Source: Psammoneis japonica
Lineage: Eukaryota
Assembly: GCA_008632985.1 (NCBI GenBank)
Contig: QPGO01000039.1
Span: 248,001 to 312,000 of the forward strand
Direction: 5' to 3'
Length of the DNA: 64,000 bases
Positions within the stretch are counted from its first letter, which is position 1, and each line of letters opens with the position of its first letter. The notes beneath the pieces are model-generated. The model saw nothing but the letters and a program-made list of their open reading frames with translations, searched no databases and was not told where the DNA came from. The position numbers were made by a program, and so were the translations under genes. Below, piece after piece: positions 8,047-37,648 of the stretch.

Positions 8047-10439
8047 TTATATACAACAGAACTTCTTTCGCAGCAGAGCAGGAAAAGCGAGACGTAAGCA
8101 AGGGAAGGGTGAAGGAGCAACAACAAGAAGTAGTTCAACCGACAAAGCGCCACGTCTCTTGTGACGGAAAAACTGAAGGGGTCTTGCGAACTTCTTTCGA
8201 ATTTAGTAGAAATGACTCCTTTCTAAGTACGATAAACAGGTCATTTATTGGATTCTTGAATGTAACAAAAGACATACTGTATGTACAGTAGTCTAAAAAG
8301 TACAGTATGAATGAAAATGACCCTCCACGTCAGCTTCTTTTACTTATGCTCTACTACGTCATAAACTGTTTGTGATGCTCACCCTGCGGCGGTGCTAGAG
8401 AGCTATCGCGCAAAAGGGACACGTGTGACGTCCAGCCCCGCCCTGCCGTGTCTCGCGTGCATCATGATGTGCCCATGTGGTTGTCAGAAAGGAGAGAAGT
8501 GAACAAACATGTTGCACCTGGCATAGTTCGCCTTCTCCAAGTGTTCTTTGTACACAAAGACTTGAGACTTGCTCTCATTTGGGGACCAGCCAGCAACAAC
8601 CTGCTCACAGCACAAAAACCCCCAATCTTCTTTGCTCTCCCTGCCGGCTCTTCCCACTCTTGCTCACTCAGCCAGCTTTTTCGTGGCTTGTTTTGTTGGG
8701 GCAACAATGCTGGCAAAAAGTCATCCAATGCCCCACTCTTTCTCACAAAAACAGTTTGAGGCCATTGGCCTCATGACTGTGCCTCTTGAAGCCAACAACC
8801 CCATGTGGAAAGCTGCAAAGCAAAGAACAAGAACGAGGAGGGCACATTGCCAGCACAAAAAGGCTGTGTGCACCAAGGCTGCGCTTCTTGTCTTCATGGC
8901 TTTGTTTTGCAAAATTTACAAAGATCAATGACCACAGACACAAGACACAAGAGAGCTCATTTTGTGATGCTAGCTTGCATCAGAAACAAGCACCACAAAA
9001 GCTGTCTGGTGTGTGCACTGGCCTTTCTTTGAGGAGCAAATGGGGCAAAAGCAAAAAAAAAAAAGAAAGCCACATGGGGGAGCAGAAGACAAAGCTGCAG
9101 AAAGCTGCAGAAAGCTGCACTCAAGATCATTTGGGGCAAACAATGTGCAACAAACACAGTCAACTCCTTGCCTTTGCTGTTCTCAGCACGCGCTGCACGG
9201 GGGCCAGCATCCAGAAGAGGCTGGCAGGGGGAAGTGCCTGGGGAGAGCTTGGGGCCAACACAAGCAACAGACAACAGCTGAGACTCTTGGTTTGGGAGTG
9301 GAGTTTGGCAGTGCAGATGGTTTGAAGAGGCAAGCTGTTTGCTCCTCTTGAGGTGCCCCCCTTCTTCTTGGCATTGGGGCGCACTTAAATCTGGCTGCAT
9401 TTCAGGTGGTTCTTCCCCACCAAATCATGGCCCTGAAGTTTCCAATGCAAAACACTGGCAAGAAAGAGAAAGTCAACAGGAATGAGGCAAAAGACAAAAC
9501 AGCATGAGTTGCAAAGAAACTGTGTGGGTGACAAATTTGCAAGCAGAGGCCTGCCGCCATGGCATGGAAAAGGAAGAAGGAAAAGCTGATGAAAGCAATT
9601 GAAATCTGCTGGTGATGGGGTCACCATTTGCACTTTAAGAAAATTTCAAGCTGTGCTGAGTGCAGAGTCTTTTGGCTGCAGCCCTGTGATGGAGAATTTC
9701 AAGAGCTGTGGCTGTGCACCAAGCACTGTGTCACAAGGGTGATTTGCTGATGTTGCTCTGCACTCCAGTGGGGCCTTGTCACACTGCATCTTCCACAACA
9801 TGGGAAGAACAGAAAGCTTGTTGACAACTGGGGCAAGAAAGACAAATGTGGGTCAAGATGCAGCAGAGCAGTTGACACTGTGCACACAGCAATCCACTGC
9901 ACCCCACTCCCAACTGGAAGGTCTGTCAGTTGTTTGGAAAGAGGAGAAGAGAACAAGCCACCCTGTGCCCACCCTGCTCCCAACTGGGAGGTCTGTTGGT
10001 TGCATGGAAAGAGAAAGAGAAGCCTGGGCCCATCAGATCACAGAGAGCCACTTGCCTGAGGCACAAGCCATTGCAGCTGCAATGGGCTCAGAGCATCCTG
10101 TGCTGGTCGTTGTGGCACGTTGTTGCCTTTGACCTTGTGAACAGCTGATCCCCACAATTTCTTGTGCAAAACAAGCCTTTTTGAAAATGATGCACTGTGG
10201 CGGCAATCTTTTTGTCAAGCTGTGCACTGATGAAAAAGCAGTGCGTCATGGCATGGCTGTGCTCTTGAGAGTCTCATTGCCCACACAACACCATCATCAT
10301 GCAAAGTCATTTCTAGAATTTGGACGCCAACAATGGACGAGTCATCCCAGGAATTTTGGTCTTGTGTGCTGTGTGGCATCACTTCATGGTTTGAAGCTGT
10401 TTCTAGAATGCAATCAAAATGCAGACATGATTGGGAAGA

Positions 10440-12950
10440 GGTCAAAAGGAAGTTGTCTCATGGTGTGCAGCTGTTGGGTGCATTGAGGAACGGCTCATGA
10501 TGCTTGTCAAAAATCATTGCTTCAATTGTTGCAACATCCGTGGTGCCCCAGCAGTTTTCCCTTGCATCCATTGCCGCACCATTGCAACCCGATGGAAGCA
10601 TGACCGCAAGTTTTCCCGTGTTGAGAAAGGAATTTCCCAAACAACAGTCGTGGCACCACCTGGAGTGCTCCAATTTGTCACCCACATGTCTTTGTGTTCA
10701 GGCAAGCTCAAGCCTCACGAGCGACTCTTGAGTCGATTCCATCAAATGCACACATCTGCATCTGCATGGCCAACCAAAAAGCCAGCTGCAGCCATTGGCA
10801 AAGATGTTGTGCTCAATGCAAACATCCCATTTGGAGCACCAGATGCAAGAGCATTCAGAGAGATTGGACAACACTGAGTTGCAAAACAAAAAGCAGGCAG
10901 GTCCTGAATTGCCAGCAGCCGGCCAGAAGGCTCATCCATTGGTGATTGCACAGAGCTGCAAATCAACAAAGGTGGTGGAAGGAGCACTGGCTGACAAGAA
11001 AAAGGAAGAATGTCCTTGACCGTCAAAGGTGATTGGCTGGGTGTCCGTTCTGTGTGCCTTGACTGTGCCATGCACCAGAAACATCTCATCCCACTCGTCC
11101 ATGCCCGCGCCAAATGCTTGTGCTCCAGGCTTGATCGTCAGTGTCACTCCTTGCAGGATCTGCACTTTTTGTGTCAAATGATGTGGACTTTTGCTCAAAG
11201 GCCAGACTGTGTCAGAGGAGAGAATGTCGCCCACAACCAGTGCAGGAGTCATTGGCCGCATCGTCGGACCAGACGTCATGCCATCCATCAACAACCCAGG
11301 AACCTTTCTGTCTGGCTGCACCAGGAAAGGCTCAAACAGGACGCAGCCAGCTGTGTGGCTGTGTCATCATTTTTGTCCCAAATCTTGGAGTGAACAGTTG
11401 ATGCATTCATGGTGCCCCAGCAGTTTTGCCGTGCATCCACTGCCACCCCTTCACAACCCAATGGAAGTGCAACAGCAAGTTTTCCCATGTCAAGAAAGGA
11501 ATTTCCCAAAACAACAGTCGCGGCACCATCCGGAGCATTCCAATTCATTGTGCACATGTCTTTGTGTTCAGCCAAGCCTCAAGAGCAACTCTTGAATCGA
11601 CTCCATTGAATGTGTGTGCCTGCATCTGCATGGCCAACCAACAAACCAGCTGCGTTGGCAAAGATGTTGCATGCACTCAATGTCAATGTCCCATTTGGGA
11701 TGCCAGATGTGAGAGCATTTGGAGAGATTGGACAATGCTGAGTTGCAAAGAAAAAAGCAGCCAGAAGGCTCGTCCGTTGGTGATTGCACAGTGCTGCAGG
11801 TCAACAAAGGTGGTGGAAGGAGCACTGGCTGATGAGAAAAAGGATGAAAGCCCTTGGCCATCAAAGGTGATTGGCCAGGCTTCCGTTCTGTGTGCCTTGA
11901 CTGTGCCATGCACCAAAAACAACTCACCATGGTTGTCCAGCTTGGTGCCAAGTGCTTGCACTCCAGGCTTGATTGTCAGTGTCACTCCTTGTGGGATCTG
12001 AGCTTTCTGCAACAGACAACATAGACTTTTGCTCACAGCCCACATTGTGTCTGACAAAATCACACCACCTGCTGTTGTTCCTTGTTGAGGTGGTGCAGGC
12101 TCTGGTGCAGGATGCACCAATGAAGGTCCGGGTGCAGCCTTTGTTGGTTGAGGAGTCGGCGGCATTGTTGTTGGAGAAGGAGTCAGTTCAGGAGTTGGAG
12201 GCATTGTTGTCAGAGAAGGAGTTGCTTGTGGAGTTGGTTGCACTGTTGTTGGAGAAGGAGTCGGTTCAGGCATTGGCGGCATTGTCATCAGAGAAGGAGT
12301 TGCTTCTGGGCTTGGCTGCGTTGTTGTCAGAGAAGGAGTTGCTTCTGGAGTTGGCTCAAGAGTCATCTTGCCAACAGAAGACAGAACTGTTGGCTGCATT
12401 GTTGCCAAAACAGGAGTCGCTTCTGGTGTTGGGGGCAGAGATGTTTGTCCTGTGGAGAGCAGTTTGGTTTGTCGGTTTGTCTGTTGTTGCAGCTGGGACA
12501 GAAGTGCTCAGGGCAAGATTTGGCTCATCTGTTGGCGCATTTGAGGTGCCAGGACAGTCAGAGATGAGGTGCCAGGCTCCTCTGTTGCACCTTCAAATCA
12601 ACCGGATCAATTGGGGGAGAAGTTGACCCAGAGCTGTTGGCAGGTGCCAGACAAAAACTCTCCATTGCCACTTTGGAAGAGCAGAGCACCAATGACAGTG
12701 CCCAAAAGCAGGAAAGTTCCAGTGCCAGTGGCAAAGGCAATCCACTTCCATTTCCCACATTTGCGTTGTTCCAGAGATTTGTCTTCCCCAGGTGGTGTCA
12801 TCTCAACTGCCTCAGCTTCTTGCACCAATTGGGCAGTGACTTGAATGTCTGTGCTTTCTTGAATTGGAGCATTGTCTGGTCATTGTTGGGTTGTGAACAC
12901 TGTAAAATCCCCTTTGCCGTCAAGTCCACCATCCCAACAAGCACCAGGGC
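10440..12950 (-). pseudogene. Decayed membrane-anchored surface protein: TM segment, Pro/Thr repeats, two tandem beta-helix-associated domains
   Basis: TM WIAFATGTGTFLLLGTVIGALLF and a PTPSPT repeat tract. Two copies of ILSDTxW..SKS....QK.QI.QGVTLTIKPG...FLVHGTVKAH.T...PITFDG. Many frameshifts and stops. Confidence 0.65.
12161..12360. repeat. 39-bp (13-codon) tandem repeat encoding Pro/Thr-rich linker, ~5 units
   Basis: Units such as ggcattgttgttggagaaggagtcagttcaggagttgga and ggcattgttgtcagagaaggagttgcttgtggagttggt. Confidence 0.8.
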
Positions 12951-14711
12951 ACTGCTCTTTCTCCTCCATTGCACTCAGAGACACAGGTTGATGAGTTGGT
13001 CATGGGTTCTCAATGCTGCAGTTTGTGTGGCTTGCTTCTTGGTGGCAAGAAGTCCATTTCTTCTTGTGTTTTGCAACCTTTTCCTTTTCAAGAGAGCTGC
13101 TGGCATTTGCTTCCAAATCGGGAAACACAGATGCAAAATCGCCGTGATCAGGGTCACTTGGGCAAAATGTGTCACGATCAAACTTTTCATGGCTCCGTTT
13201 CATGTGGCTGCGTGAAGATCGGTGCACTTCCTTCTTGTGGTGATGATGGTCATGTCTCTCCTCTTTCTTCACAGATGGCAACCTTGATTGTGGAACAGGC
13301 TGAAATTGCTGCCAATGACACTGGACTTGGCGCTAAGACACGTGCAAATGATGGATCGTTCATGTGGGCACCGGGTGCACAGGGCACTTGCAGTTCAGAC
13401 GATCCTGGCCAAAGCAAGCAGTGCACAGGCGGTCTCCACACTGCACTGCACAGCATGAGCAGCCACCTGGTGTTTGGTCCTTCTTCACAGAGACAAGATT
13501 TGAAGATGAAGATGAAAGGGAGGAGAGAGCCTCTCTTGCACCTGGCAAAAAAAGTGTCTCTTTCAACTGCTCTTTGCACAGTCTTGTTTGGCACATGTGC
13601 CACACCAGCTTGCAAAAAAAAAAAGTGTGCAGAGGCCAGCAAAGAGCAGCTCCTTGTGTGCAGAATTCCACAGGCCCATGCCATGCATGACCCAACCTGG
13701 GACTGGAGTGTGTCTGTTTCCCCCCAAAGCCCTTCACTTTTTTGAGATGGCTTTGTCGTGGCGCAACGTGCTTGATTGAGCACATCAAGCTTGTTTCTTT
13801 CTGGCAAAAAGACATTGTGAGGCTGGTGGTGGCCTCAGAGGTGCCTTCATCTCCAGGTTAGTCCTCATGCCCCATGCTGCATTGTGAGACATCAGAGCTT
13901 TTTTTGTCATGGTGTGCCACATGATTTGCTCTGACATTTCTGTGTGCTCTCTTCTGCAGTTTTTCACCATCTTCCTTGTTTTCTTGCATTGGGGCAAAGG
14001 CTTTTGGTGCCTCAAACCTGCCAGAGAACAAAAGCACCCAGGCAAACTGGAAATGATGTGCTTTGGGTGAGGAGGAGACATCTGCACATTTGAAAAATCA
14101 TCTCTTTTTTTCTGCTGGTGATCGGTGATCACCCACGCCAGCATGGCTGTCTCAAGGAGCAGCTTTGCTGCAGAGCCTGTGTGCAGCAGAGTTCTGTGTC
14201 ACTGATGCCACATGCAGTGCAGGGCTGGTGCATCCTCTGTGCAGCAGCAGTGTGCACCCACACCAGTGGCCAGTGGCTGGCAGCTCACAGAGTCAGTCAG
14301 TCCAAGAGCACACAACAAGAGTGTGCAGCATTCGTGCCAAGGCTGTGCTGCTCATGGCTTTTCTCTTGCCAAATTGCTGCCTTGATTCTTTCATGCTGGC
14401 TGGCAGCAGGGGGGCAAGGAAGAAGGTTGTGTGTTCATTTTGGGAGCATCAGCACATGAGAGTTCCAGATGGCACAAGATGAAGCTGCCTCTCTGGGGGG
14501 GCTCCTGCTGGCACTGGGCTCAAGGCCACAAAACAACCATGGTTGTCACTTTCTCACTTTTCCAGCATTGTTGGAACAGGAACATTGATCACTGTGACTA
14601 GATCACACTCCAAGACTCCTGTGCATTCTGACACCAAGTCACGTTTTTGTGGTTGGTCACACGGAAAAATTCAAGTCAGAAGCACAAAAAACATGCCAGA
14701 GCCTGTGCCAC

Positions 14712-14872
14712 CAGTGGCGTAGAATGGTTCAGGGTGTGCACAAATTTTGCACCACAGTGGCGCATGTGATTTTTATGCAAGTTTCCACATGCGCCCAGTG
14801 GCGTAGACCCAGTGCAAAAGCAACAAATTTTTGAAGTTTTGTGGCGTACAAAGTCAGTGTGTTGTGGCGTAG
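14712..14872 (+). repeat. Array of five (CA)GTGGCGTA motifs, probable transposon subterminal repeats
   Basis: GTGGCG starts at 14714, 14757, 14798, 14841 and 14864. Confidence 0.55.
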
Positions 14873-16291
14873 ATTCGACATCAACAAGGCTTTGCGCAAC
14901 ACTCGCAACAACCAAGACACGCTCGCAAAATCTCGCTCCCACTTTTTCACACGTTGCAGCTGATGTGGTGTTGTTCATTCGTCTCACTCGTTTTCTCATC
15001 GTGGAACCTCCTGATGACACAGGGTGTCTTTCAGGCATGTGCATCGGTCTGATTGCCCCCCCTCTTTGGGCAAGAATGGGGTGTGTGGTTTGCTTCTTGA
15101 AGACACCAGACCAGCCACAAGGAGCTTGCAGTGGAGAGCTGGCAAGCAAAGCACTGGGCTGCGCCACAAGGCACTGGCTGATGGGACAGCATTGGGCAAG
15201 CACAACCACAAGCATTTTCCTGAGGGCACTTTGCACCACATGTGACAAAGCCAGAAACACGGACTGAAAAACACAGACAGAGCCAGGTTTTGCTCAACTG
15301 GCCACCCAGAATTCAAGCAGGGAGGGTGCAGCCGGAATGAAGAAGGCTGCAGGTCAATTTGAGGTCCCAGTGGGAACTTGCTTTGCATGTTTGTTGACAG
15401 CCTGCTGCAGAAGCCATGGCTGCACTGGAAATCCACAAAGGTGGCAGTGCGTGATGGGGTGGATCTCGCAAATTCTCTCAAGATTTTGTGATGCATGAGG
15501 CCAAAATTTGGGCGCAGCATCCACAGATGCTTTGGGAGAGATGCTGTGAATTTGTCAAGGCAGGCACTTCTGAAAGCATGGGTGGGGAAGGCCAGTGCTT
15601 GCTGCCAGGGATCTTTGTGAAAATCTTTTGAAGAGGATGACACTGCGTCTTCTTGATTGGAAACTTCAGAGAATTGTTTGAACACAGTGGGGCCAAACCC
15701 GCCAAAGTGTGCATTGAATTTTGGAGAACAAAGAAGACACAGATCCGCAGCAGTGGTGGCCACAAAGCTGGCAGGGCAAGGCTTGGAAAACAGGCTGCCC
15801 AAAAAGCCATGATGGGCTGGCAGCAAAACACTCCTCACAAAAGGTGCCACACAACTCCACAGTTCTCCAGCGTGCTGTGGGAGCTTTGCTGTCAAGCATG
15901 TAAAACCACAGCACCTCAAGTCACAGACAAGCTGCTTTGCAGGCAGAAGCCCAGCCAAGGGCCGCAAGTTGACAGCCCTGCAACATCTTCCCTTTTTCTC
16001 CTTTTTCCTTCTTTTCCTCTCTCTCTTCTCCTTTTTCTCCTTTTCAGTTTATTCTTCTGGGCCGCCTCCGGCGGCCACCTCTTTCATTCTTCCCACATGC
16101 CGAAATCTCGTCACAGGTGGGATCCCAGGACGCCAAGCAAATCGGACGGCGGCACTTGTTGGAACGCACATTCGATCCGCGCGATTGGCCCCTGCGCGGC
16201 GGCTTGCATGAAGAATCGATCATCAGCGGTCCCAGATTTTTCGACACACGATGGGGTGGATACCTAGTAGAAAGGGACTCTAAGAAGAAAA

Positions 16292-17908
16292 ATGGAGACG
16301 GGGGAATCTCTTCAACCTGGTGAAGTTAATGTTTCCGATTTTTCTTTGTACAAAGATTTGAGACTTCTTCTTGGAGGTGCGAGTTGGTGAAAAAATCATA
16401 AGCAAATTCCCTTTAGGTTTGCACCGCCTCATTCATTCATTCATTCATTCATTCGGTGCTTCTGTCAATTTTTAGGTTCAATCTTGATTTATGGTATTGC
16501 GGACCTCAGGGAGTTGGCACGAAAAGGCGATGTTTTTGAAGAGTCAACTGCAAACGAAATCCTCACCATTGGCAGTGAAAGCAAGCACGATCAGTTCTAC
16601 TTTGATGTGTTTGAGCAGCACAAAGACAAGGTTTTGAAACACATTGGTTCAAGAGGAACGGAATTGTACTTGGGGTCCATTGATGATGTACGCGAAGAAG
16701 CCGAAGCCGCAAGAGCTGCAGCTGCTACCCTTGAAGTGTTCGAGGACGAAAATAACACAAGTGAATGCGTGTATGCAATCGTAATGGATCGGTGAGTTGT
16801 ATGATTGTTTGCTTTACCTCCATGTTTGTGCTATCTACTTGTATGTCTCTCAATGTGTCGATGATTGATTCGCCACGGTAATTACAAGCTTTTCCAAGCG
16901 GATCGTCGTGTATTTTCGTGGATCAGGTGAGTTCCACAATGTCTACAACTAAGGATAATGTTATGACGGACGCCCTATGCTTCGACAGTCCACCACACTA
17001 ATTCTTTGTGATATGCCGCTCGTAGCAACACCACACGATTGGATGATTGACGCAACAATGACACTTAAGACTATCCCAAACCCTGTACCATCGATAGAGA
17101 AGGAGAATTGAAGATACATGGAGGTTTCCATCAATACCTTTACGGTACAACGTCAGACAGAAAGATGAGTAAATTCGACAAAATCATGGGCGAGGTTGTT
17201 GAGCTGCTACAGGAAAACCCTGGTTATCGCCTCGTTTCCGCAGGCCACAGCCTTGGTGGAGCCTTGAGTATTCTCTTTGCCTTTTCCGCAGCCGCGTCGT
17301 CGAACCCCCTCATTCCGAGCCGGTTTTGTCTGTTAGCTTTGGATCTCCTCGCGTCGGCAATGATAAATTCCGTGATGCTGTGGAGGTAAGTGTTATAACA
17401 TGGAGTCCAACCATGCGCTATGAAAGAGGTTATGTTTTTTACGAATGCATTCTAATCCTGTGATTGTTAAACCTACAAGGTGCTGGAGAAGCAACACAAA
17501 TTAGTCGTCCTCCGAGTGGCAAATCAAGGCGATCCGATCACCAATATGCCCAACGCGACAACTTTAATGTTCGGTTATCGAGTGATTCCATCTCTAAACT
17601 TTCGTCACGTGGGTCTAGAGCTCAAGCTCCGAAAAGGCAGCCCACCCTCCTTTATTCATTCTACATCGGCAGGCTCCTCGGGGATGAAGCGGACCATGAA
17701 AGACATGTACCATGATTTTCGTGATACCATTCGTTTCTTCATTTGTCCTTGTTGTGGTCGAGGATCTCCAACCTGTCATCTCTGCGGTGAATACGTCAAG
17801 CGCTTGAACGGCGAGGCCAAGAAGGATTTGAAAACCATGAGTCTGAATACTCTCAGGAGCAAAATACTCAAGAAAGAAATAGACTACAGGGAATCGATTT
17901 GTAGATAA
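16292..17908 (+). CDS. Class 3 (fungal-type) lipase, 5 exons, two apparent 1-bp frameshifts
   Basis: Motifs VYFRGS, IHGGF, GHSLGGA, FGSPRVGN (shifted frame), RVANQGDPI, FRHVG. GT-AG introns at 16377-16475, ~16792-16888, ~16927-17025, 17386-17479. Confidence 0.8.
16430..16454. repeat. (CATT)n microsatellite in lipase intron 1
   Basis: cattcattcattcattcattcattc. Confidence 0.9.
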
Positions 17909-18121
17909 AATTGAAAGAGGATGCGGATTGCGATTACGCTGTTCGAGGCAACGAAGGAGCCATAGAAGCTTCCAGTTGATCCTGGCGAGGTGGTTACACA
18001 GCGCAAGAAACCTGTCTACGGTATCCTGACGAAGCATATTAGAGATGCTTCGAGACGTTTTGGTCATTTTTAGGCGATGGGAGTGTTTGATACCTGTCTG
18101 AGGGACTGTTACTTTTTTGAG

Positions 18122-18916
18122 TTAAGTATTCTTGGTCACATCCCACGGGTCACCCGCGGCATAGGCACCGCTGACATTGAATGCCAGCGAAACCCGAGGT
18201 ACGTGTCGTCCGTTTGAGATGTGGAAGTGTCTGGAACCCCGTGCACGAGCCACGGTGGGAATATAACGACCTGGCCTTCTTTTGGCTCAATTATTACATC
18301 GTCATCGTGTTTACAAGAGCACTCTTCTGGTTTTCTCAGCACCAGAGGCGCACAACCGTCCGGAATTCTTGAGTAGTACACACCAGAAACTAGAACTCCT
18401 TCATGTACATGATCTTTATGATATGCACCGGCGCCTCTTTGAACGGCTGCCCACATGTCTATTGCAAGCGTACCTGCATCAAATCCTGCTGCAAGAGAAG
18501 GTCTGCTAATTTCTCGCAAATACCTTGCCACTGCATCAGGCAGCAGCTCGTCTTGGAGACGAACCGCTTCGGGGCAAGAAGCAATGGTCGACAAGCGGTA
18601 TCCTCGTAGGCGTTGGTGCTCAAAGAAATAATCATTGCTTGTCAATCCATCCTTCAAATGCTATTGGCATTGGTGATGAGGAGTCGTCTGGTGCTCGAGA
18701 CAAAGTTCTTCGTCTTCTCCTGTTGCCGGCTGTAGGACTGCCTGTTGCGTTGTACTGGGAAAGACTTGATTTGTGTGTGGAAAGATATTCGTCAAAGGCT
18801 TTCACGGCTGCTCGAGCAAGATTGTTGTTATATTGTGCATCCACCACGCCAGCATCTAAAAGATTCAAAGTAGCGACCGGGACGACACCCCACAACCGCT
18901 TCATAACCAACGCCAT
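18122..18916 (-). CDS. 2OG-Fe(II) oxygenase-like protein, with frame breaks at ~18660 and ~18200
   Basis: WAAV...YHKDHVHEG..VSGVYY...VIFPPWLVHGV, with the terminal RVSLAFN motif in a shifted frame. Confidence 0.75.
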
Positions 18917-19039
18917 AGCGTCGCATGTTGATGTCGGTGTCCGACCGACGAAACGCGTGTGCGATCGGAGGTGCGTATCACCCCTGCGACCCGGGGCAAA
19001 ATTGAAAATGTGAGCAGGCAATGAAGTGGTGTGGACTTC

Positions 19040-20000
19040 TCCCATTCACTTCCAACTGCGACGATGTCCAAGAATTGTAAATGCCCAACTGCATGGACAA
19101 GCTCTTGAGGGTTGAATTCATCCAATGTCGGCATTGAAGCATTGTTGCACAATGCCATCCAGAAAAGGTGGTGCTGAGTGTCCACCAGCAAGCAGCAGCC
19201 AACAACAAGTGTTCGGTCGGAGGTTTTGGCTCGCCAATTTCTGTGCTGGTTTGTCAGTGGCAGAGTCAAAAACCAAGGGCTTGAGGACCAAGCTCATCCA
19301 ATTTTTGAGCTGTGTGCAGCATGAAGAAGGGTGCTTGAGAGTGCTGCAATGGCAAGGGCTTGGAGGGTCAAACCCACCCAAGGCCCCAGTTGATGATCTC
19401 TGGCCATGGCATCAAAAAGAAACTGGAAGATGTCATTTGAACCCATCCATTTTTTGTTGGCTGATGTCAAAAAGCAGTTGGTGCAGCACCCAACAGCAGG
19501 AAGCACCTGTGCTGCACCTGTGGGTGCAAGGTGTTGGGGGCGGAACTTGCCCCATTTTGTTGAAGCCACATCGTCAAAAAGAGACAGCAATGGATGGCGT
19601 CCTGTTTTTGCAAACAACTGCAGGTCACTCAAAACAACAGAAAGACAAATGTCCAGCAGTGGCAAGAAAGACCCAAACAACATTGGCAGTTTTTGGGCAC
19701 ACCAAGTGACCCATTGTTGGAGCCAGTGTGCCACAGATCAGCACACCAAAAACTCTTTAAGTGTGCACCTCAGCTTTGCAAAAGCCTGCACAGTCTCTTT
19801 GGTGCATTTGCCAGAGCAGCAAGGAGACATTGCACTTTGCTCTGATGATGATCCACTGAGCTCCTCCACACTGTCCCAAACATCTGGTCCAAAATCCATC
19901 CTTCCAACATTTGTCAACCTTGCAAAGCTGTTTGCAACTGAGCCTGGCTGCTGTGGTGGAAAAATGCCTGCAACTTGTGCAGGATGTTGCAGCAATTTTG
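19040..20000 (-). pseudogene. Decayed helical-repeat (RAP-domain/OPR-like) protein gene in hypermutated block C
   Basis: Recurrent F-x-P-Q-x-L motifs across broken frames: KFRPQHLA, LDEFGPQAL, LDEFNPQEL; LFD..A motifs precede some of them. Confidence 0.45.
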
Positions 20001-20389
20001 TTGCGCCATTGTTGCTTTTTTGCTGCTTGGTGAGTTCACATTGCAGTGATCTGATGTGCCCAACAAAGCATGGTGTGTCCTTTGGGCTCATTTTGTTGCC
20101 ACAGCTGTCACACATGGCAAACACTTCATTTGCTCTGTCGGCAGTGCAAAAATTGGTTGGCCTCCAGCAGTGGGGTTGTTGTTGGTGTGATGTCATGTGT
20201 TGGCAAGCTCCTGTCTCATGGACCAGAGGATTGCTTTTAATGATGAGCATTTGGCTGCGAATGATCCATCTGCGTTTGATGCAAACCTGACAATCATGGT
20301 GTGTGCTAACACAAAAGACTGCAGAGCCTTCATCCTGCAGTTTGCACATGCTCTGCATGCCCTTCTTCATGAAGAAGAGACATTCAATG

Positions 20390-20735
20390 CATGTGCATGG
20401 CCCAAAGGTGTTGCAAAAGCTTGAGGGTCCTTCATGGTGAAGGTCAGGTCATCCACATGTGCTGCCATGCATTCACTGTGGTCACCGTTCTGTTGCAACC
20501 AGATTTCGGGTTCGGCGCCCACGGCAAGGGAAGAAACCTTCGGCACGCAAACAATTGGCAAAGCATTCATGCCACCTGAGGCTGGAGCTGCAGAGTCTGT
20601 GTGGGGCCTTGTGGATGACAAGGATGTGTCCTTCCAGCTCACCAAATTTGGGGCCTGCTGCAATGTACAGTTTCTCCTTGGTTGTAGATTCGCATTGGGC
20701 ATTGCCAATGTCGGTTGCCCACAGTCCCAGCTTCC
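20390..20735 (-). mobile_element. Ty1/Copia (CoDi-like) reverse transcriptase fragment, decayed
   Basis: LWATDIGNA..ESTTKEKLYIAAGPKFGELEGHILVIHKA and AEPEIWL..NGDH.EC...HVDDL (YVDD changed to HVDD). Confidence 0.85.
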
Positions 20736-21131
20736 AAGCCTGCAGACTGCTGGTTCCTTCTCAAGAGAGAATTTTTTGGCAGCTTGAGGCAGACCACGCA
20801 ACAGTGGGGTAACGGCACCACGAGTAGATGAGCTGCAAAAACCAGAATCTGTAGAGGGGATTGAGATGCGGCATTTTAAACTGAGAATTACAAAACCTCG
20901 ACTGTAACCTATTTAGATATAACGCGTAGTAGCCCGGCCGGTCAAGTCGACAAACGGCCCAACATGCGCAAATGCAATGATCTTCTTATCGGCGATGCGC
21001 GAGGCAGCTTTTGGTTGTCCCACTGCTTTTTAAAATACAACAGGCAAACAAAAAAAATGGCCTCGTGTAGATTGCCACATTCTTTTCAAAATTACAGGCA
21101 AAAACAAATGCAAGTCCATCAAGCACCACCT

Positions 21132-27179: not shown

Positions 27180-27633
27180 GAATGTAAGAATGAGTACCAA
27201 GACGCTTGAATCTTACAATGATTGTTCAAGCCCTCGATGCATGCTCGTGTGTTATTCTATTTTCAGAGGAGATAGACGTACGGAGACCTAGCAAAGCTTG
27301 TCTTATCTTTTGTGTTCTCAAAGGGATACAGTAACAGATCAAACTATTCTTCCTTGGATAGCCGTATAGTTGTTCCGGCGTCGGTCCAATATGAGTGCTA
27401 TAAGAAAAAGCTGCCGCAAGCATATTGCTGTCATGATTTCACCACGCGAAGGCTCTGATTACGGTAGCACAAAGAAAAGGCACCCCTTTTCAAATCGCAT
27501 GATATGAATAATATTTACGTACAGTATATTAGACTGAGACCTTCTTTTGACAACCAAGAGCAAGGTTTTACTACAAATACGCCACAGACGTAGAAGGCAA
27601 AACCTTCAATTATTTAGCTCCTTTTCTTCATTA

Positions 27634-28194
27634 TCACTCGGGTTTGAATGTATTAAGATCACCCAAGTCAATTGTTTTCATGGCTGACGGTCCAGCTGGT
27701 GTAGCGGAATAGCGTGAAAGATCATCTTGTCCCACGGGTATCTGTGAGAAAAACACGACAAACACCAACAGGGCGACTCCTCCAAGAATGGTGACAATTA
27801 GATTTCCTCCTTCTTCCGAGTCGTCCGTCATCACTAAATCTTCCTTTTGCAGTTCCATCTCGGATAAAATCATGTCTTTGCCCTTGACATCGGCCAGCTG
27901 TGACGTGTCTACTACAACAGACGACGACAGCTTGTCCGACTCTTCTTCTTCTTCTTGCGGGGATTCTTCCTTGAGCTGTCGAAGTTTTTCTTCCAACTCG
28001 GCAATTTCTTCTTCGCGACTGGTGCTAAAGAGACTTGACGCCATGTTTCGTTCATGACTACCCACTATAGAAACTCCGCGACGAGCAGGAACAACCAACC
28101 CAGAAACACAAACGGTGCACAACGACAACGACAAGAGCGTCAACAACAACACCGTTCTTGTGCTTTTTCTCATTCTATAATCCCTTTTACTCAT
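27634..28194 (-). CDS. Hypothetical protein with signal/transit peptide, coiled coil and C-terminal TM
   Basis: Intact 186-aa ORF, hydrophobic N-terminus, EEEIAELEEKLRQLKE, TM LIVTILGGVALLVFVVFF. Confidence 0.7.
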   Translation of the reverse strand: MSKRDYRMRKSTRTVLLLTLLSLSLCTVCVSGLVVPARRGVSIVGSHERNMASSLFSTSREEEIAELEEKLRQLKEESPQEEEEESDKLSSSVVVDTSQLADVKGKDMILSEMELQKEDLVMTDDSEEGGNLIVTILGGVALLVFVVFFSQIPVGQDDLSRYSATPAGPSAMKTIDLGDLNTFKPE

Positions 28195-28634
28195 TTCTCA
28201 ATACGGATTCTATGTATAATAGGAGCCCTCGATGAACTCTATTGCAATTGTCAATGTTTCGAACAACAACACAGAAAGCACCAACTGACATCATCGGCAG
28301 AGTGAACATGCCGAGCGATGCGTGAGCTCGCGCGGATGGCTCCGGGAGTGCAAGCATTATAACACAGACATGCAAGTCGGAGTAGAGACGGATGCGACAC
28401 ACTCTTGTTCAGGAAAACAAAACACTACTTTTGCCGCGTTGGTGTTGGCCCAAGACCGGAGGACGGATGTGAAGCTTGCAAAGAAGAGCTTACTCAAGCT
28501 CTAGCTAGGAGATCGACTTGTTAATCTACTATTATTTTTTGAACATACTGGACGATTAATGCTCGCAAGCAAAAAAATGAATACTTTACTCTCTTTCCCT
28601 ATAGAGTAGCATGAAACACTACACATAATATAAA

Positions 28635-30692
28635 CTACTTCTCCGTGTATACTTCTTCCACATCGGAATCATCCTCATCGTCACTGTCAGCTGCCGCACG
28701 TGCCTTTCGCAACGCTTCCTTTTTCTTTTCCGCTTCCGACAACTCCTTGATAGGTGCATCATCATCCTCATCGTCACTATCCTCCTCGTCGGAATCATCC
28801 TCCTCGTCCGAATCGGAATCTTGTTCAATATTAGCATTGAGCATTTCTTCAAACAAGGTCGGTTCATCATCGAGTTCGGCATCATCGGGATGGACCTTGT
28901 ACTCGGGTAGGGTGGAAGAATCCAACGTGGTCAATTCGACCTTTTGTTGTTGATCCAAATCCAAATAGGCATTGGACTTGACGTACAAGTCAAAGCTGTA
29001 CTCTCCGACACGGGGAGCCAAAAACTTAATCTTGTGTTGAACGACACGGCTGGGATCCACCACTTTGTCAATGGAAATAATCTTACCCTCCTTGGTACCC
29101 AACGCGACCCACCACGCTTCTTGTTTGGGAAAGGGAAAGTGTGGCGCATGCACCAAACCCGCCTTGCCGTCTTCTGGTAGGTTTTCTCGTACAATGGTGA
29201 CTTGGACGGTACACAAATCCCCCTCGTACACCTTATCGTCTTCATCGTCATCGACAAACACCTTGGTTGTGACGGTAATGTTGGGAATGATGGTATTGAG
29301 ACAATACAAGACATCGTGTTTTTGATCGTCGGTAAAGTTGGCCATGCCCTTTTTATCGGCATCCGGTACTTGACGATAGGCCGAAAGCGACGATGCCTTG
29401 TTTTTGCCCTTGATGCAGTGCTTGACTTCTTCACTTGTAAAGTAGGGCAATTGCAAGAGCGAACTGTCCTTGGTCCAACACGCTTGTGTAATGTACTGTC
29501 CAAATTCGATACAATTCAAGGCCGTTTGGAGTGAATCTTGATGTTGACACACCGAAATCATGGCATCCACCAGGCTGCCTGACAATTGCAACATGCGTTT
29601 CAAATCCTCCTTGCTCTCGTCACTGAGCAATTCGTCCGCCTTGCGAATCAAATGAGCATGCATCAAGACATTGCCCTTGACACAGACGGGATGGTTGTAT
29701 TTGGGTTTTTGCATGTGCGATCGGACCTTGGCCATGACAGAGGCGATTTCTTCCTTTTCGGCATTGGTTTTGGGCAAATTGACTTGACGAAATTCCGCCG
29801 CACCCGCGAGAATTTCCGGCATGCTCTTGACCGTTGTGTGTTCATTGAGGGTGTAATGATACCAACTGTACGTGTCGTACATGACATCCTTTTCACCAAA
29901 TTTGGATGAATCCGAATAATATCGCCACACACAAAAGGGAATGACACCCACCATGACGATAAGATACGTCATGAGGACCAAATTACGATTGGCCGTATCG
30001 AGCAAAAACGACGGCAGCCCAATGCTCACTTCCAAGCTCTGCTTTCCATCGGGATTGCCGTACTTTTCGTAATTTTCCTTGGCCGCCTCATCCGTCAATG
30101 CCTCGTATGCCTTGGCGACCATCATGAATTTCGCTTCCGCCGCGGGATTGTTGGGATTCTTGTCGGGATGGTACTTGAGACTCAAATTGCGATACGCGCG
30201 TTTGATCGCACGATTGTCCGCACCGCTGTCGATTTCGAGAATGGAAAAGGGATCAAACGAATTCACTTGACCATCCGTGCTGACGGAGAAACTTAGATAC
30301 ACAAACACGGCCGTAAAGAGGACCGTCAAGGCGACATTCCATAAAAAGCCACGGCGGAGCAACACGTGTACGCCCTTGGAGGTGCGCTTGAGATCGTCCG
30401 CCTTCTTTTGTTCGGCGGCCGTACGAGAGACGGCACCAATGTCCTTGTCCTGGAGTCCAAAAAAGGCCTTATGGACCGTAGAGAGAATCGAGTACCATGC
30501 TGAGAAAATGGAAAATGAAAAATAGAGAGGTTAGTCACACAAAAAAGGCACTCGAGAAAGCGTTTTGATCACAGAACCCGGAAACACATCATCATCCCCA
30601 TCGTCATGATCATCTCACTTACACGGCACGAGATAAAAGCTGATGGTACTCAGCGCAAAGAAATAAAACGCCGAGTTGTCGTATTGCAACAT
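28635..30692 (-). CDS. SEC63: ER translocon J-domain protein Sec63; intron 30500-30622
   Basis: MLQYDNSAFYFF start, TMs, J-domain FDPFSILEI...YHPDKN...YGNPDG, Sec63/Brl domain (HAPHFPFPKQEAWW), acidic tail. Confidence 0.95.
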
Positions 30693-32080
30693 GTTGGAGT
30701 TATAATCACGAGAGAGAAACTCTCAGAATAATAGAACAACGACCACAATGACTTCCAACAACGATCGATCGAAACGTGTGTTGTGGTCGGTGGTGGTTGA
30801 GTTTTATTTGCTTCCACGCGTCGTGACATACGTACAGATTAAAGTGCGTGAATGCGCATGTAGATTTCTACGACGAATGGATACGAAACGTTTGTCTGTT
30901 TATCTGTTCAACGGCTTGATTTCGCACGCGTCGTCTCCACTGTCTGCGCACCACTGATTGTCTCCTCTGAGCACACCAACCACCACCACCAACAGAATCT
31001 CTTGTTTTTTTTTTGCAGAAAACAGAGAAGCAAAAAACACAATTCGATTGGTGTGTGTTTTTATGGAATTGGAACAAAAGGACATGATTCTGAATGGCAC
31101 AAAAGGGTTGTCATGGGGGTGTCATGTGTGTGTGTGTCAAGAACAACCTCTTTTGGGGGGGGGGGGAGCTCAGAGCATTTTGCACTGGGCACGCACTCCT
31201 CTCACAGTAAACGCAAGCATTGTTTTTGCTGTTTTTGCGCACTTTTGATTTTTCAATGATGGGGGAGTTTTGCTGCTGGTGCATTTCTTTCCTGCACATG
31301 CCTGTTTCTTCTTCTGTGTGTGTGCAGTGCTTTGTGCCAGCTTGTGCGCGCCACTCTTTTCCATTTTTTTCTTGCCACGTGGTGCTGTCTTGCACACACG
31401 TGCATGCACAGTCTTTTCTTTTTCTTCTTTTGGTCAGAGCACTAAAAAACCATCAAATTGCTTGAGAAAATGGCCTTGGCAGTCTTTTGATTTGGCTTTT
31501 TTTGGGGGGGGAGCTTCCTGCCCGCCAAGCAGTGCACTCTTTTTTGTGCCGGGTCCCGACACTCCACATGCCACAAAACAGTTCTGTGGAAAGAAAACAG
31601 CTGTGCAGCCACCCAGCTCCCAAAAGTCAGGAGGCACAGGCAAGAAACACCGACTTTGACCAGGTGCTCTCAACGCATGCATGTGCTGATGTCATTGCAC
31701 CAAGGGTCATGCAACAACACATGCATGGTGCTGCGCCTTCTTGCAAAATTGCCACAGGCAACAGCAGACAGCAACATGCAGCGCCGCTGTCTGTGTTGTG
31801 GACATTGCATTTGCTCATCATCTCGCTTTCATCGATTGTCTCGAGTCTCTCTGGAGTGTCCCAACATCTCACACAATGAGCTCTCTGCATCTTGCTGTGA
31901 AACAAATCTTGGAGGAACAGGTGGAACAGCCATTGTCTCCTCTGAACATGAAACAGAAAGCTGCAACAAAGGCACTGGGGAAGAGTCGTTGTCCGCAGAA
32001 TAAAGCCAAGAGTTCTGCCTCATGCAGCAAGGAAGACCCCACGCCACCACCAGCAGCACCACCTAAGCAGAAACATGTGA

Positions 32081-34560
32081 TTGGCACCAAGATCTCAAAA
32101 TGGTTCATGTCTTTTCATTGCATCAGACTGGGAGAGAGCAAAAGCCGCAATGAAAAAGCAGATTGACAAGTTGACAACTGGTCATGCATCTTGTGATGGA
32201 TGGAGAGAAGTCATTGAAGGTGGGGACCCGGATGATCTTTGCATGCAGAATGACGTGCACTTGATGCGACTGCGATGCCAGCATCTTGCTGTTGCTCTGG
32301 ACTGCGCATTGAAGAGGCTGCCAGAAGGAAAGACTGCCTGCTGGCCACAGTGTTGCCAGCTGGCCATGGATGATCTTAGCGGTGCAGGTGTTGACTTTGT
32401 AAAAAGTTGCCGAACTGCAGCTGCATGGCATGAGATCTTTGGGCACCTGAATTCATTTCCACACCCACGGCCAAAAGGAAAGGGAGATCCACCGGCATTT
32501 CAAGCGCATCCAAAGATGAAGCAGAAATTCATTGAGTTCATGTCATCCAATCTATCTTGACTTTCTGCTGAGGTGGCCACAGACCACTTCCACGAAACAC
32601 TCGCACAGGAATTCTTAAAGAGAGAGAATGAAGGCCACAGCAAGAACGGGGAAGAAATTCTTCAATCGGAGCGGGAGTTTCTGAATCAGCGCGGATTGCT
32701 TGCCGGGGAAAACCAAAAAATCATCTCCTCCAACACTGTTTCTAATTGGGTGGACCAGTTTGGTTTCAAACATGGACCAAACAAAAAGATGCACCATGTT
32801 GACAATCATGAACGACCGGACAATGTGAGGCGCAGGAATGCAACGATGGTCCGCAGATGCCTCATGAAGGAACAACGTGCCTTGCGCTGGATGCAGCTGC
32901 CAAAAGCCATCGCAACGGACCTCATCGCAGCTGAAGCACTCTAAGCCAAAGTGGGACATGAATGCCAAGTTGATGGGGACAATTTTGTGGAACACCACAT
33001 CAACACAGTCATGGACCCCACCCGTCCAATCCTCACCGAGAAGCTGTCTGTGAAATTTGGGGGGAGCAAAAGCGTGCGCAAGGACCCAAATGAAAAGCCA
33101 GTTATGATCTTTGGACAAGATGAAGCAATTTTCAAGCAGTGCTTGCTCAGCACAAAATCTTGGTCAGGTCCTGATGGTGAAAGACCTCTGCTGCCAAAAG
33201 ATGATGGTGAAGGCGCAATGGAGTCCTTGTTCCAGTGCCACGAGGTTGGCCTCACAAGCGAAGCCAACATGTCACAACAGAAGCTTGCAGAGATAAATGC
33301 AACTCATGCAGGCAAGTGCTGCGCTGATGAAGAAGCCGCCAAAGTGGTGTTTGGCAAAAAGCAACACAAGCCGGAACTGACTGAGAGCCCATTTCTTTGG
33401 GAGTTTGAACATGGTGCCAACAATGAAGGCCACTGGAGCTGCAATCACATGTTGGTCCAGCTGGAGGATTGTGTCAACTGTTTGAAGGTGATGCATCCAC
33501 AGCTTGATTGTCCATTCCTCTTTGACCATTCTTGTGGGCATGACAAGCAGAGAGCCGATGGATTGATTTGCAACAAATGCACGATGAATGCAGGCATTTG
33601 CAACAAATGCACGATGAATGCAGGCACCGGCAGCAGCCAGAGCAAAATGCTCCCCACTGTGATTCTGCAGGCAGAGGGCTTTCGGGGCCCACATGCTGAG
33701 GCAACTGGAGTGCCATCTGCAGGATCAATGCAGACAATGGTTTTTGGTGAGAATGACAAGGGACCACATTGGATGACACTGGAGCAACGACAAGCCGGGA
33801 AGTGTGTTGCACCTGTTGAAGGAGAAACTGAAGCTCAGAAGTTTTTGCACCCTGAACTCCATGACAAACTCCTGCAAAAGAATGTCAAGAACATCAGGGG
33901 CAAGAAGAAGGATGAGTTGATTGACACAGCCAAGATTGACAATGCACCTGTGGAAGAAACAGTTCAAAAAGTGAAGTGTGGATGGCGCAACAAAGCAAAA
34001 GGCTTGAAGCAAATCTTGCGCGAGCATGGATTCATTGATCTGAACAACCCCAGCATGTGCACAATGGATGGCACGAAGGGTGCAGACGGTGAGACTGACA
34101 AGTCCATGTCTCTGCTGCGCTTGATGTCTGCTTGCAATGATTTTGTCAATGAGGAGATGTTGTTGCAAACGATGGGTCAAAAAATGGGTGCAACAATCGA
34201 TCGAACGCCCAAGTGTCATCCAGAAATGGCTGGGGAAGGCACAGAATGTTCCTGGGGATTGGCAAAGCAACACTGTCATCTGCAACCTTTGTCAAGGAAA
34301 AGGGGAAAGAAGGGCTTTAGAGCACTGGTGTGAGAATCATTGTCGGCCGATGCACTCACCACACCAAGAGAATCCACAAGTTTTCTCGATGCATTTGACG
34401 ATGCATTTGTGCGGTTCTTTCACAGCCTGACATCTCTCAAGAGATCAAGCAGGATGCCATGTCTCTGGAGGCAATTGAAAAACTTGTCAAGGAGTTCAAA
34501 GAGCACTGCAGTGTGGTTGACTTTGACAAGGGTTTCATTGTGGGGTCGCTCGTCAGGACG
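32081..34560 (+). mobile_element. Decayed DDE transposase of the IS630-Tc1-mariner superfamily
   Basis: IFGQDEAIFKQ (D1), FLFDHSCGH (D2), TPKCHPEMAGEGTECSWGLAK (E region), GWRNKAKGLKQILREHG. In-frame stops at ~32560 and ~32944. Confidence 0.75.
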
Positions 34561-34599
34561 GAGGAGTCATCACAACAGATGTCAATCTTGAACATCAAT

Positions 34600-36900
34600 T
34601 GTTTGACATGTCTTGTTGCTGACGTGTTTGGGTCTTTTGCTTCAGACCATTGCATGGCAAATGAATTTTCCCACCAGTTGCACAGGATCAATGCAACATC
34701 CAGGTTGGCTGCATGACAAGCTGCACCCAAACATCATGCCCCACCGACACGAAACATGAAAACAACCAAGGCTTCTGCTTGTCATCTGCAGGGAGCTTTG
34801 CCGCAGCCTGCTGGTTGAAATTCACATTGCAGTGCAGGTCTTGATTGAGACAGTTGTTGAGTGGCATTGCCAATGGGGTGTCACCAATTGGATGATGGCC
34901 GCACATTTGTCTCGTGCTTGGACAGTCATGACACAGATGAAGTTCAGGCAAGATCCAGTGCTTGTGAATGCCTTCTTTCTTCATCCACTCAATTGTGTCC
35001 TTTGCTGTCATCAATGACAGAGCGTCATGCCAAAAATGCCAGTTGTCCTTGTGCACCATCCTTTTGAACGCCTCCTTGCTTGCTTCATGTGTGGTGACAG
35101 GTTCCAGCTGTTTGCAAAAGTTGAGTTGGAGCAAGCTTTGTCTTGTCCCAATGTTCTGGGATGCAAACAGCAGTGTTGCCAGTGACGGGATCCTTTGCTT
35201 CTTTCTGCTGCAAATCCAGAAGTCCAAGGCACATCAGATGTTGAGTCAAGAAGTGTCCCATTGGAGTTTTCATTGCAATTTTCTTGACTTGTGGTTTTCA
35301 CTTTGACAATTTTGGATTTCATTTGCTTGACAAGGGAATGGACAGCTGAGCAGAGCAGAGTGCAATTTAAGGCCCTGCGCGAATTAAGGCCCTTGTGCTG
35401 TCAGGCTCAAATGATGGATTCGAGGTGCGAGCTCCACAAAAACAGCGCGGGAACAGCGCGCAACAAATGGTCAATGGCTGTTTCCACCTGCAGCAAAGCT
35501 GCAAAAAAAAGACTGTGCCACCACAAATGGAGGTCTGAATGAACAACACTGTGCCAATCCTCATCATGTTGATGCATGAATGGATCCTGAGCAGCTTCAT
35601 CACTGCAGTCCATGGATCCATTGACTTGCTCCTCATGGCTCTCCTCTGTTTCTCCAGTGCCTCTCATTGAACTCTTCTGGCTTTTGAAAATTTCAACTGG
35701 TTTCTCCTTGTTGCACTGACCTTCACGAATGATGAAGATGACACAGTCAACAAACATGATGGAGCACATTCTTCCATCTTCAGAGGCTTCTTCGGCGGTG
35801 CCATGACACATCTTTTATGTCGTGTTGATGCAATGTGGGGATCCTGTGCAGGACACAGCACTGATTCCATGCATGTGATGTGGAAGGCCTTAAATCACAA
35901 CCATGTTGTCATTCTCACTCATCGGACATTTTGGTTCACACGCCAAAACTCATCAACCACGCAGATTTGAAAAAGCGGAGCAGCAACTTTTTTCTGACAA
36001 GTTCAGCGAGATCTTTCATGTGAATGCACAAAAGTGCAAAATTCATGCGTGGCCGCATTGTGTTGTCTTCACAGATGCAGCTCTTAGCTGGGCCTCAAAT
36101 TGCGCTCCGCTCCATGTCACACCATCCTTGCCCGATTCTTTGCGATGATGGTTGACAGCGTGCCAAGCTTGAAGGGTGCTGAACCCATCTTTTTGTGCGT
36201 CTGCAGCAATCTGACCCTCTGTGCTCATTGGCTGAAGCACAGGAGGCTTGCCGTGTGAGTTGCCACCCTTGACAATCCTCTGCTCTCCATCATGCTGCAC
36301 GCCATTTTGTTGGCACTCCAAATGAGCGTGAAAGATGGGAGTGATGTCTGTGCCCTTTGGAAGATTGAGCAAGTTTTTGATTGCAGAAATTGTCCTGTTG
36401 CAACCTTTCCATGAGTCTTCATCATCGAGGTGCACCAAGAACTTTGAAGCAGCATGCAACGGCAATTTTCCGGCACCCAAACAACAAAACTGGCTCTGGC
36501 AATTCATCTCTGTCTTTTCCAACACTGAGTCCAAAGCAACGTCAACCTCTTCAATCTCGCGCGAATCTTCTTCTTGGTCATCATCATCATCGTCGTTGAA
36601 TGTCCGCGTTGGTGTGGGCGTCGGCATCACTTGTGGCGGTGGTGGCTGGGGAGGGTCATGTGATGCAGCAGTTTCCTTGCTTCTTTCCCTCTTGAGCTTG
36701 CAACCGGCCTGTTCCAGCTCCAGGTGATCTGCTTTTCATCGTGCGAAAGGCCGATTTTCTGTGCAGTTTGGCGCAATTGACTCCTTCAAATTTGATCGTT
36801 TCAAAAATCGAAAGAAAGGTCAATTGCGCTGAATGCACAAATTTCCAAATGGTGGGAATCGAGCCCACGCGGAGCACCTGGAGCTGGAACAGGCCAACCA
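34600..36900 (-). mobile_element. Second decayed Tc1/mariner-like transposase, convergent with the first, interrupted by a MITE
   Basis: WHFWHDALSLMTAKDTIEWM...WILPE...PIGDTPLAMPLNNCLNQDLH (SPDLNPLD-like region). N-terminal part IAADAQKDGFS...VNHHRKESG. Confidence 0.6.
35353..36112. mobile_element. 760-bp MITE-like element with 23-bp TIRs and 2-bp target duplication (now CA)
   Basis: Left gagcagagtgcaatttaaggccc; reverse complement of right end gagcggagcgcaatttgaggccc (20/23). Removal restores the frame KDGVT-C-SAVHSLVKQMKSK. Confidence 0.8.
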
Positions 36901-37648
36901 ACACCACCCCTTTTGCCACCTTTGCCTCTGCCTTGTTTGCCTTTCACCATTGCAGTGGCATTGGTTTGTCCAACACTTAAAAGAAAGAACCGCACAGGTC
37001 GATGCAGCAGTGCTTCACTTTTTTAGAAAATGTGGCGCTCAAATGAAGCCAACATGTTGTTCACACAAACACACTGACACACACAATTTTTCCCGCCAAA
37101 ATTTTTTATCATGAAACGAACATCATGTGATCACTGTCAAATTTGCGCACCTCATTTCTTTGATCGGTGAGGAACCGAAATGGTGGAACACTTTTGAGGT
37201 GCTGAACACGATTTGATTTGAATGCATTCTACAGACATGTCGGCGTGCATTGGGGGGGTCATCCCCGCGTTTGTCCTAAAATTGCCGTTGCATTTGAACA
37301 AGGTTTTTTGCAGTGCTTGTTTTTGAATGCAAGAATCATTCATGGTCACACCCGATCGTGCACGAAAACGAGAACCATCAGCACCGCGATCGAAGCACGA
37401 CGATGATGACAATCATCGACATTTCTCAAAAACGCAGTTTGCCGTCTACCAACTTTTCATGCACGCACAATCTTTGACACACAACAAACATAAAACAAAT
37501 GAGAGTTGGCAGACGGACCACCTCCGTCACAGACTTATGGCTTGTTGTTTTCACCACGGTGAAGCACGGTGAAATTCAGGAAAAATCATGCAAAACACGA
37601 GCTGTTCGGCCGAATTCGAGCTAAAAAAAGCAGCAACCGACCACCCTC

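Follow-up and report, generated by a model that had tools for sequence, protein, structure and literature searches.

Near-complete loss of TpA steps in sharply bounded blocks of Psammoneis japonica DNA, graded by the two flanking bases

Blocks depleted of TpA and the relics they hold

We analyzed a 64,000-nucleotide stretch of Psammoneis japonica DNA (hereafter the window; positions 248,001 to 312,000 of contig QPGO01000039.1, assembly GCA_008632985.1), parts of which have been almost emptied of the dinucleotide TpA (TA). A hidden Markov model (HMM) run on TA occurrence alone, blind to flanking bases, called six blocks, 24,117 bp in sum and with 76 TA left. Within these sharply bounded blocks the TA observed/expected ratio (O/E) was ~0.03, as against 0.4–0.76 in gene-rich DNA; the density was 3.2 per kb versus 40.4 per kb outside, and ~92% of the TA steps have been lost. 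Inside the blocks the O/E was ~0.1–0.6 for CG and ~1.7 for TG/CA.

The original prediction, made from the sequence alone, had taken 8900–37300 as a single domain. The three blocks found there, at 8406..16258 (20 TA in 7853 bp), 18978..20806 (6 TA in 1829 bp), and 30903..37446 (24 TA in 6544 bp; contig depth shows it to be multi-copy), account for only 15,586 of its 28,401 bp, and the range as a whole holds 578 TA, including 56 GTAC and 39 ATAT. Further blocks lie at 3044..4844, beyond the range first considered, at 40811..43564 (12 TA), and at 50231..53566 (10 TA).

The block at 30903..37446 contains a dead transposase-like open reading frame (ORF) on the forward strand (32081..34560), DDE_3-like by an Atlas lead only and without a match in Pfam. 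Bacillariophyta were most frequent among the three members with a record in the nearest Atlas cluster, and the ORF at 32945–34330 had 170 homologues, the named ones coming from Fragilaria, Nitzschia, and Thalassiosira. On the reverse strand of the same block, a second protein relic with two homologues (34691..35233) has lost both shared Tyr, and a relic at 42789–43328, in the block 40811..43564, has lost three out of four. A Pfam search of 19 in-block ORFs returned no family that reached the cut-off.

Transitions at TpA and their flanking bases

In the transposase element, none of the 13 conserved Tyr columns is kept: seven have become Cys, five His, and one Arg. Lys, in contrast, is kept in 14 of 16 columns, Asn in 4 of 5, and Phe in 12 of 16 (30 of 37 in sum; p = 2e-7 versus the Tyr loss), and retention is complete for Gln (8/8) and His (5/5), again with p = 2e-7 for the 13/13. 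Glu (17/19) and Asp (11/16) are also largely kept, and Arg→His and Asp→Asn changes in the element are consistent with CpG decay. None of the 16 Lys columns shows a change to Arg; two Phe→Leu changes (TTC→CTC) might reflect AA→AG, and AA may thus mutate at a low rate.

The same change was seen directly in DNA. A paralogue at 42..489 (forward strand) retains its TA and served as the "before" state of its erased copy, 4416–4867, from which it differs by TA→TG/CA. A high-copy element spans the edge of block 30903..37446 (36672..38672; summed contig depth up to ~10,700 versus ~60 in unique DNA), and its other copies have TA where the window has TG or CA; the copies differ from one another at TA/TG/CA. 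Among the best 40 of ~2000 places with copy variants, transitions exceeded each transversion class ~5-fold, with no evident excess of transversions or indels.

Base composition agrees with these observations. When TA and CG transitions only were applied in simulation to outside DNA, the outcome per kb was 2.7 TA, 17.5 CG, 220 TG/CA, and 168 AA/TT, the blocks having 3.2, 22.1, 214, and 164, respectively. AA+TT is not reduced in the blocks (163.7 versus 162.5 per kb), and AA→AG was not raised alongside TA→TG in either the blocks or the protein columns. The argument, already advanced from the sequence, against general WA mutation of the polymerase eta type is thus borne out, AA+TT density being unreduced and the Lys columns showing no Arg. 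Its companion, that poly-A and ApT are abundant, holds for A/T runs (5.1 versus 3.7 per kb, not reduced) but less well for ApT, which is mildly down (53 versus 64 per kb, with 60 in the simulation); as ApT is largely kept, N6-methylation at ApT was set aside. The sharp boundaries of the domains spoke against UV photoproducts at TpA, which were also set aside.

The TAs that survive are far from a random sample. They comprise 39 YTAR, 32 mixed, and 5 RTAY sites, versus 242, 860, and 510 of the 1612 TA outside the blocks, 140, 426, and 221 in outside non-coding DNA, and 2465, 6727, and 4070 (19, 51, and 31%) of 13,262 TA in unmutated relatives of the transposase. This last baseline consists of 79 of 80 metagenome loci of the family; the omitted locus, L071, is itself erased. 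For YTAR versus RTAY, the blocks differed from the 79 relatives with p = 4e-12 (Fisher) and from block-internal composition with p = 9e-4. Non-coding DNA and transposon loci gave the same outcome, so a stop-codon artefact of the baseline was dismissed. Consequently, the predicted NTAN context bias between the inside and the outside of the blocks is present in the window. All eight CTAG and TTAA positions first reported are exact, and 8 of the 11 TAs in 8900–14600 are YTAR, none RTAY. That RTAY is essentially gone is correct for ATAT, ATAC, and GTAT, which are absent from the blocks, but five GTAC remain, only one of which is left once 200 bp are trimmed off the block edges.

The preference is graded. 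YTAR as a class is not spared, being 78–85% lost, and only YYTARR survives largely (20 seen versus 31 expected). With 0, 1, 2, 3, and 4 flanking purines, survivors over expected were 0/85, 2/295, 20/354, 34/203, and 20/31, i.e., a survival of ~0, 0.7, 6, 17, and 64%. The cumulative hits per A obtained from a per-adenine decay fit, in ranges that span the baselines, were 2.6–2.8 for TAT, 1.6–2.0 for TAC (2.0 when edge-trimmed), 0.8–1.1 for TAG, and 0.4–0.9 for TAA, with a TAY/TAR ratio of 2.3–3.1 depending on the baseline. Surviving half-sites included 13 TAT versus 29 TAC (p = 0.04 and 0.003 against two baselines), and 114 of the 152 had a purine at +2, where block dinucleotides given +1 predict 79.5. 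By logistic regression, the survivor odds ratio per purine was 3.1–4.3 at +1 and 3.3–3.4 at +2 (p ~1e-10 or lower), ~1 at +3 (no effect), and 0.7 at +4. The motif is therefore strict TpA with a graded pyrimidine preference at +1 and +2, TA-Y-Y being fast and TA-R-R slow. The TAY target originally proposed captures the 3′ pyrimidine preference but is too narrow, since +2 counts as much as +1.

Could TA have been removed evenly, the survivors being new TAs arisen beside A/T tracts or a product of baseline composition? TTTA and TAAA make up about half of the survivors, and a gain–loss equilibrium gave a fit only slightly poorer than that of pure decay (log-likelihood difference 2.2). Even so, the equilibrium fit still needs TAC to be lost 5-fold and TAT 11-fold faster than TAA, the unerased paralogue has the TTAG at 4590 too, which makes this site a true survivor, the three baselines agree, and the asymmetry of the products, described below, is independent of survivors. 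We regard the absence of any flank preference as very improbable.

Survivors by themselves were rejected as proof of orientation, because simulated TAY, RTA, and symmetric preferences left nearly identical survivor classes; the orientation rests on the products. The YTGY/YCAY ratio was 1.48 in the blocks, 1.25 outside, and 1.10 in the relatives (1.5-kb chunks; p = 0.008 and 1e-6), and the simulations gave 1.32 for TAY, 1.05–1.13 for symmetric, and 0.88–1.01 for RTA, with the caveat that the control ratio YTCY/YGAY is likewise raised in the blocks. Direct sites were also counted, leaving aside those of other outcome or with poorly matched flanks. Other copies supplied 20 TA-restoring variants among the best 40 of ~2000 variant places. 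At mixed-class sites with known before and after states, outcomes for and against TAY were 9:3 in the other copies, 4:1 and 1:1 in two window pairs, and 3:3 in Tyr codons; pooled, 17 of 25 fit TAY (p = 0.054 versus an even split, 6e-5 versus the RTA model). The expectation that YTAY Tyr sites mostly become YTGY is met at the DNA level (14 of 19 before/after sites) and fails at the six conserved-Tyr sites, which gave three Cys and three His. Two aligned in-block duplicates show unoriented TG/CA switches. Overall, TAY is favored over RTA, and moderately over no asymmetry.

At 37462–37510, six consecutive TA-restoring variants are all CA in the window, possibly a one-strand mutation run; the nearby sites at 37284–37344 are mixed.

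Such a run would suit the one-strand patches of another candidate, an error-prone Y-family polymerase (iota- or eta-like) that fills repair patches in methylated repeats and, past a T:A primer end, places G across from template T. Polymerase iota is described as favoring G over A when it copies T (PMC3031609). In the available account of somatic hypermutation, polymerase eta resembles the window process in its A→G changes at TA, with hotspots ranked TA > AA and enhanced by a 3′ T (PMC8749460), matching TAT as the fastest context here. Since polymerase eta also prefers TAT, a 3′ pyrimidine is not diagnostic. Polymerase eta, however, hits AA as well, and in the blocks, where TA is saturated, AA, CA, and GA have been left all but untouched, judging from the Lys, Gln, and His columns and the AA+TT density. 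Moreover, the slowness of TAG runs counter to a slippage route, and the transversions and indels show no evident excess. This makes a polymerase origin improbable.

CpG loss, other loci, and other features of the window

CpG is depleted in the blocks too, TCG no more than ACG or CCG (0.34 versus 0.36). In all six blocks GCGC is kept (in/out ratio 1.1), the other NCGN being at 0.3–0.5, and GpC steps exceed the prediction of the TA+CG model (77 versus 62 per kb in the blocks). The CpG loss is consistent with the DNMT5 methylation of diatom transposons as reported in PMC9998398.

L071, a metagenome contig encoding a protein 47% identical to the window element, has two tracts (363–905 and 946–1501) with a single TA each, Tyr→Cys/His changes, and a CpG O/E of 0.64–0.82; unerased patches (1–362 and 906–945) abut them abruptly. 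It is likely a second lineage with TA erasure. TA having been erased there with CpG intact, the two losses are separable, and the same fact speaks against polymerase patches in methylated repeats. Three related transposon loci (L021, L024, and L034) show CpG erasure without TA erasure (CpG O/E 0.04–0.10, TA only mildly low).

Wholesale Tyr→Cys/His replacement was found in 8 of 269 homologous proteins with at least three Tyr columns. These transposase proteins from public metagenomes (P0087, P0110, P0116, P0120, P0127, P0129, P0225, and P0229) fall into four groups and may belong to other species. Their Tyr outcomes, at few sites, were 7:3 overall and 3:2 with one protein per group. Even with L071 included, their number is too small for a test of the flank rule.

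Some other features of the window deserve mention. Block 8406..16258 contains an ~860-bp-spaced duplication (10495–11216 / 11364–12054) and a 39-bp tandem array (12104–12432). A former host-like gene with a 39-bp Pro/Thr repeat, now TA-erased, lies at 11683–12507 (reverse strand) and 10495–12054, where its duplicated domain resembles 1005–1865 in style. As this gene is erased as well, the domain may include non-transposon DNA. Five of the 20 surviving TAs of this block lie in a patch at 14700–14875, clustered at 14720–14870 in the contexts CGTAG/CGTAC and set in recurring GTGGCGTAGA-like motifs that have retained CpG; the patch is perhaps younger or protected, maybe an element end.

Elsewhere, 50979–51070, in block 50231..53566, resembles the unerased 43567–43666. 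Nested inverted repeats, partly TA-depleted, occupy 37558–38163 of the very high-copy element, just past the HMM block edge. A 2OG-Fe(II) oxygenase gene (PF13759; 18136–18660, reverse strand) sits between two blocks, and nothing links it to the erasure. One read run (X2) contained GT..AG intron-like joints, which, like the diatom relatives of the transposase, fit eukaryotic nuclear DNA, probably of a diatom; it left 31336–36671 uncovered and was not counted as evidence of expression.

Candidate mechanisms and known counterparts

The natural, sequence-specific DNA A-to-I-like activity originally proposed stands as far as sequence-specific A:T→G:C change at TpA is concerned, with the A-to-I step plausible rather than proven. 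Adenine deamination in DNA is, tentatively, the best explanation. What converts A:T to G:C is a host process limited to silent domains of transposon origin; as the products show, it acts strictly at TpA on either strand, and the survivors show that its rate depends on which two bases follow the mutated A on the 3′ side, with pyrimidines at +1/+2 speeding it and purines slowing it. The 3′ rather than 5′ placement of these bases is moderately supported. The A would be deaminated to inosine, presumably by an enzyme of the zinc deaminase fold that heterochromatin recruits, and would be read as G at replication; 3′ purines might stack on the A and hinder base flipping. The CpG loss would be a separate, slower methylation decay, a view to which the separability of the two losses lends partial support.

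Both the phenomenon and the deaminase idea are already in print for another SAR lineage. Mettrop et al. describe viral DNA, integrated in Bigelowiella natans, that is hypermutated from TpA to TpG/CpA (bioRxiv 10.64898/2026.01.13.699255). Of the 231 new mutations that arose in hypermutable regions, 230 were AT→GC, all at TpA, at a rate raised ~1000-fold and ongoing in mutation-accumulation lines. According to the preprint's main text, DDE and reverse transcriptase (RT) genes are TpA-depleted and ADAT2 is a candidate rather than an established enzyme. The likeness is close: in the window, too, A:T→G:C transitions are confined to TpA and regional, and silent foreign or mobile DNA is hit while genes are spared, although relics were identified in three places only. 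The differences are that B. natans is a rhizarian and that in the window erasure is almost total and comes with CpG loss. The main text contains no flank analysis, and "trinucleotide", "context", and "diatom" have no occurrences in it; the supplements, outside this word search, may hold contexts. Our literature search, which left out most subscription journals, found no diatom report of TpA erasure and no flank rule.

Might the enzyme be the host's own ADAT2/3, or a paralogue of TadA, with DNA as a second substrate? This sub-case takes about a third of the adenine-deamination reading and is, taken alone, improbable. The strict TpA provides the 5′ T/U that TadA or ADAT2 would be expected to prefer: Escherichia coli TadA edits UACG in its tRNA loop, and evolved variants, which also turn A into I/G, prefer TA (PMC12265680). 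A natural ADAT2, amphioxus BjADAT2, can deaminate A in DNA (PMC10354150), and an ADAT2 homologue was proposed for B. natans. The parallel drawn earlier with TadA nonetheless breaks down in the flanks. TACG is not preferentially lost (8 of 29 TAC half-sites versus 203 of 990 outside, p = 0.35; leaving out the 14.7-kb cluster, 4 of 24), the loss of TAT outpaces that of TAC, and a G at +2 protects. Nor does the window show the 5′-UAG preference given for ADAR (PMC10661471), TAG being a slow context. BjADAT2 also deaminates C and favors TCG and hairpin loops (PMC10354150), and TCG is not specially depleted in the blocks. Finally, ADAT2 is universal in eukaryotes, yet only 8 of the 269 related transposase proteins mentioned above show erasure.

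Several further points weigh against deamination, or against the form of it set out here. In ADAT2/3 tRNA substrates U33 precedes A34, but in seven out of eight (anticodons derived from the genetic code) a purine follows A34, which is a slow context here. The eight tRNAs are the eukaryotic substrates listed in PMC11802342. BjADAT2 prefers GAA rather than TA (PMC10354150). The TpA strictness exceeds that of TadA8.20, which on an RNA reporter edited CA, GA, and AA at 23–35% versus 60–69% for TA, i.e., at ~40% of the TA level, with minimal flank effect (PMC12265680). Protein-level orientation is weak (3:3 in the window, 1:2 in L071, 3:2 in the other groups, one protein per group). The rates use proxy baselines, true ancestors being absent from the comparison, and the survivors may include TAs that arose anew, the fit of the equilibrium model being only slightly worse. 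Lastly, a palindromic dinucleotide hit on both strands also suits a double-strand enzyme that modifies T.

This last point leads to the remaining alternative. As TA-Y-Y reads R-R-TA on the opposite strand, the sequence is equally compatible with a lesion on A or on the paired T. 5-Formyl-U mispairs with G. A TET/JBP-type dioxygenase might make 5-hydroxymethyluracil (5hmU) at the T of (RR)TA in silent repeats, further oxidation to 5-formyl-U then leading to T→C. Such a route would account for the domain targeting and for the double-strand dinucleotide target. In dinoflagellates, which also belong to SAR, transposons and DNA-virus elements are marked by 5hmU that TET/JBP makes, and earlier studies cited in the same source have T preferentially replaced in TA and TC (PMC11572971). 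In the window, however, TC is not erased (GA+TC at 122 versus 138 per kb in the blocks; Glu and Asp columns largely kept), and the available text of that source reports silencing rather than mutation, with no occurrence of "diatom". A T-side lesion is therefore unlikely, if less so than a polymerase.

Returning to adenine deamination, it is possible, though more doubtful than deamination as such, that an undescribed diatom/SAR genome-defence DNA adenine deaminase recognizes T-A-Y-Y, perhaps in duplex DNA, and is directed to silent transposon domains, destroying them by A→G hypermutation. We know of no natural enzyme established as mutating genomic adenine to guanine for defence; DNA adenine editors were obtained by laboratory evolution. 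The repeat-induced point mutation (RIP) of fungi is a repeat-directed process whose dinucleotide-specific transitions affect both strands, as here, but with the opposite polarity: it changes C to T and creates TpA, a gain not seen in the blocks (TpA O/E ~0.03). If real, a T-A-Y-Y deaminase would be a natural adenine base editor and the mirror image of RIP.

Irrespective of the actual enzyme, the flank rule characterizes the mutator without naming it, and nothing ties this mutator to TadA or ADAT2 specifically. The six-base quantitative footprint (strict TA, +1/+2 pyrimidines) argues against presuming these enzymes, lets candidates be accepted or rejected by a mutation-spectrum assay, and makes it possible to ask whether one and the same process is at work in the diatom and in the rhizarian. 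A protein-level screen for TA erasure across taxa could be based on Tyr loss. Because Tyr→Cys/His relics retain long open frames, transposon dating and annotation are affected in such genomes.

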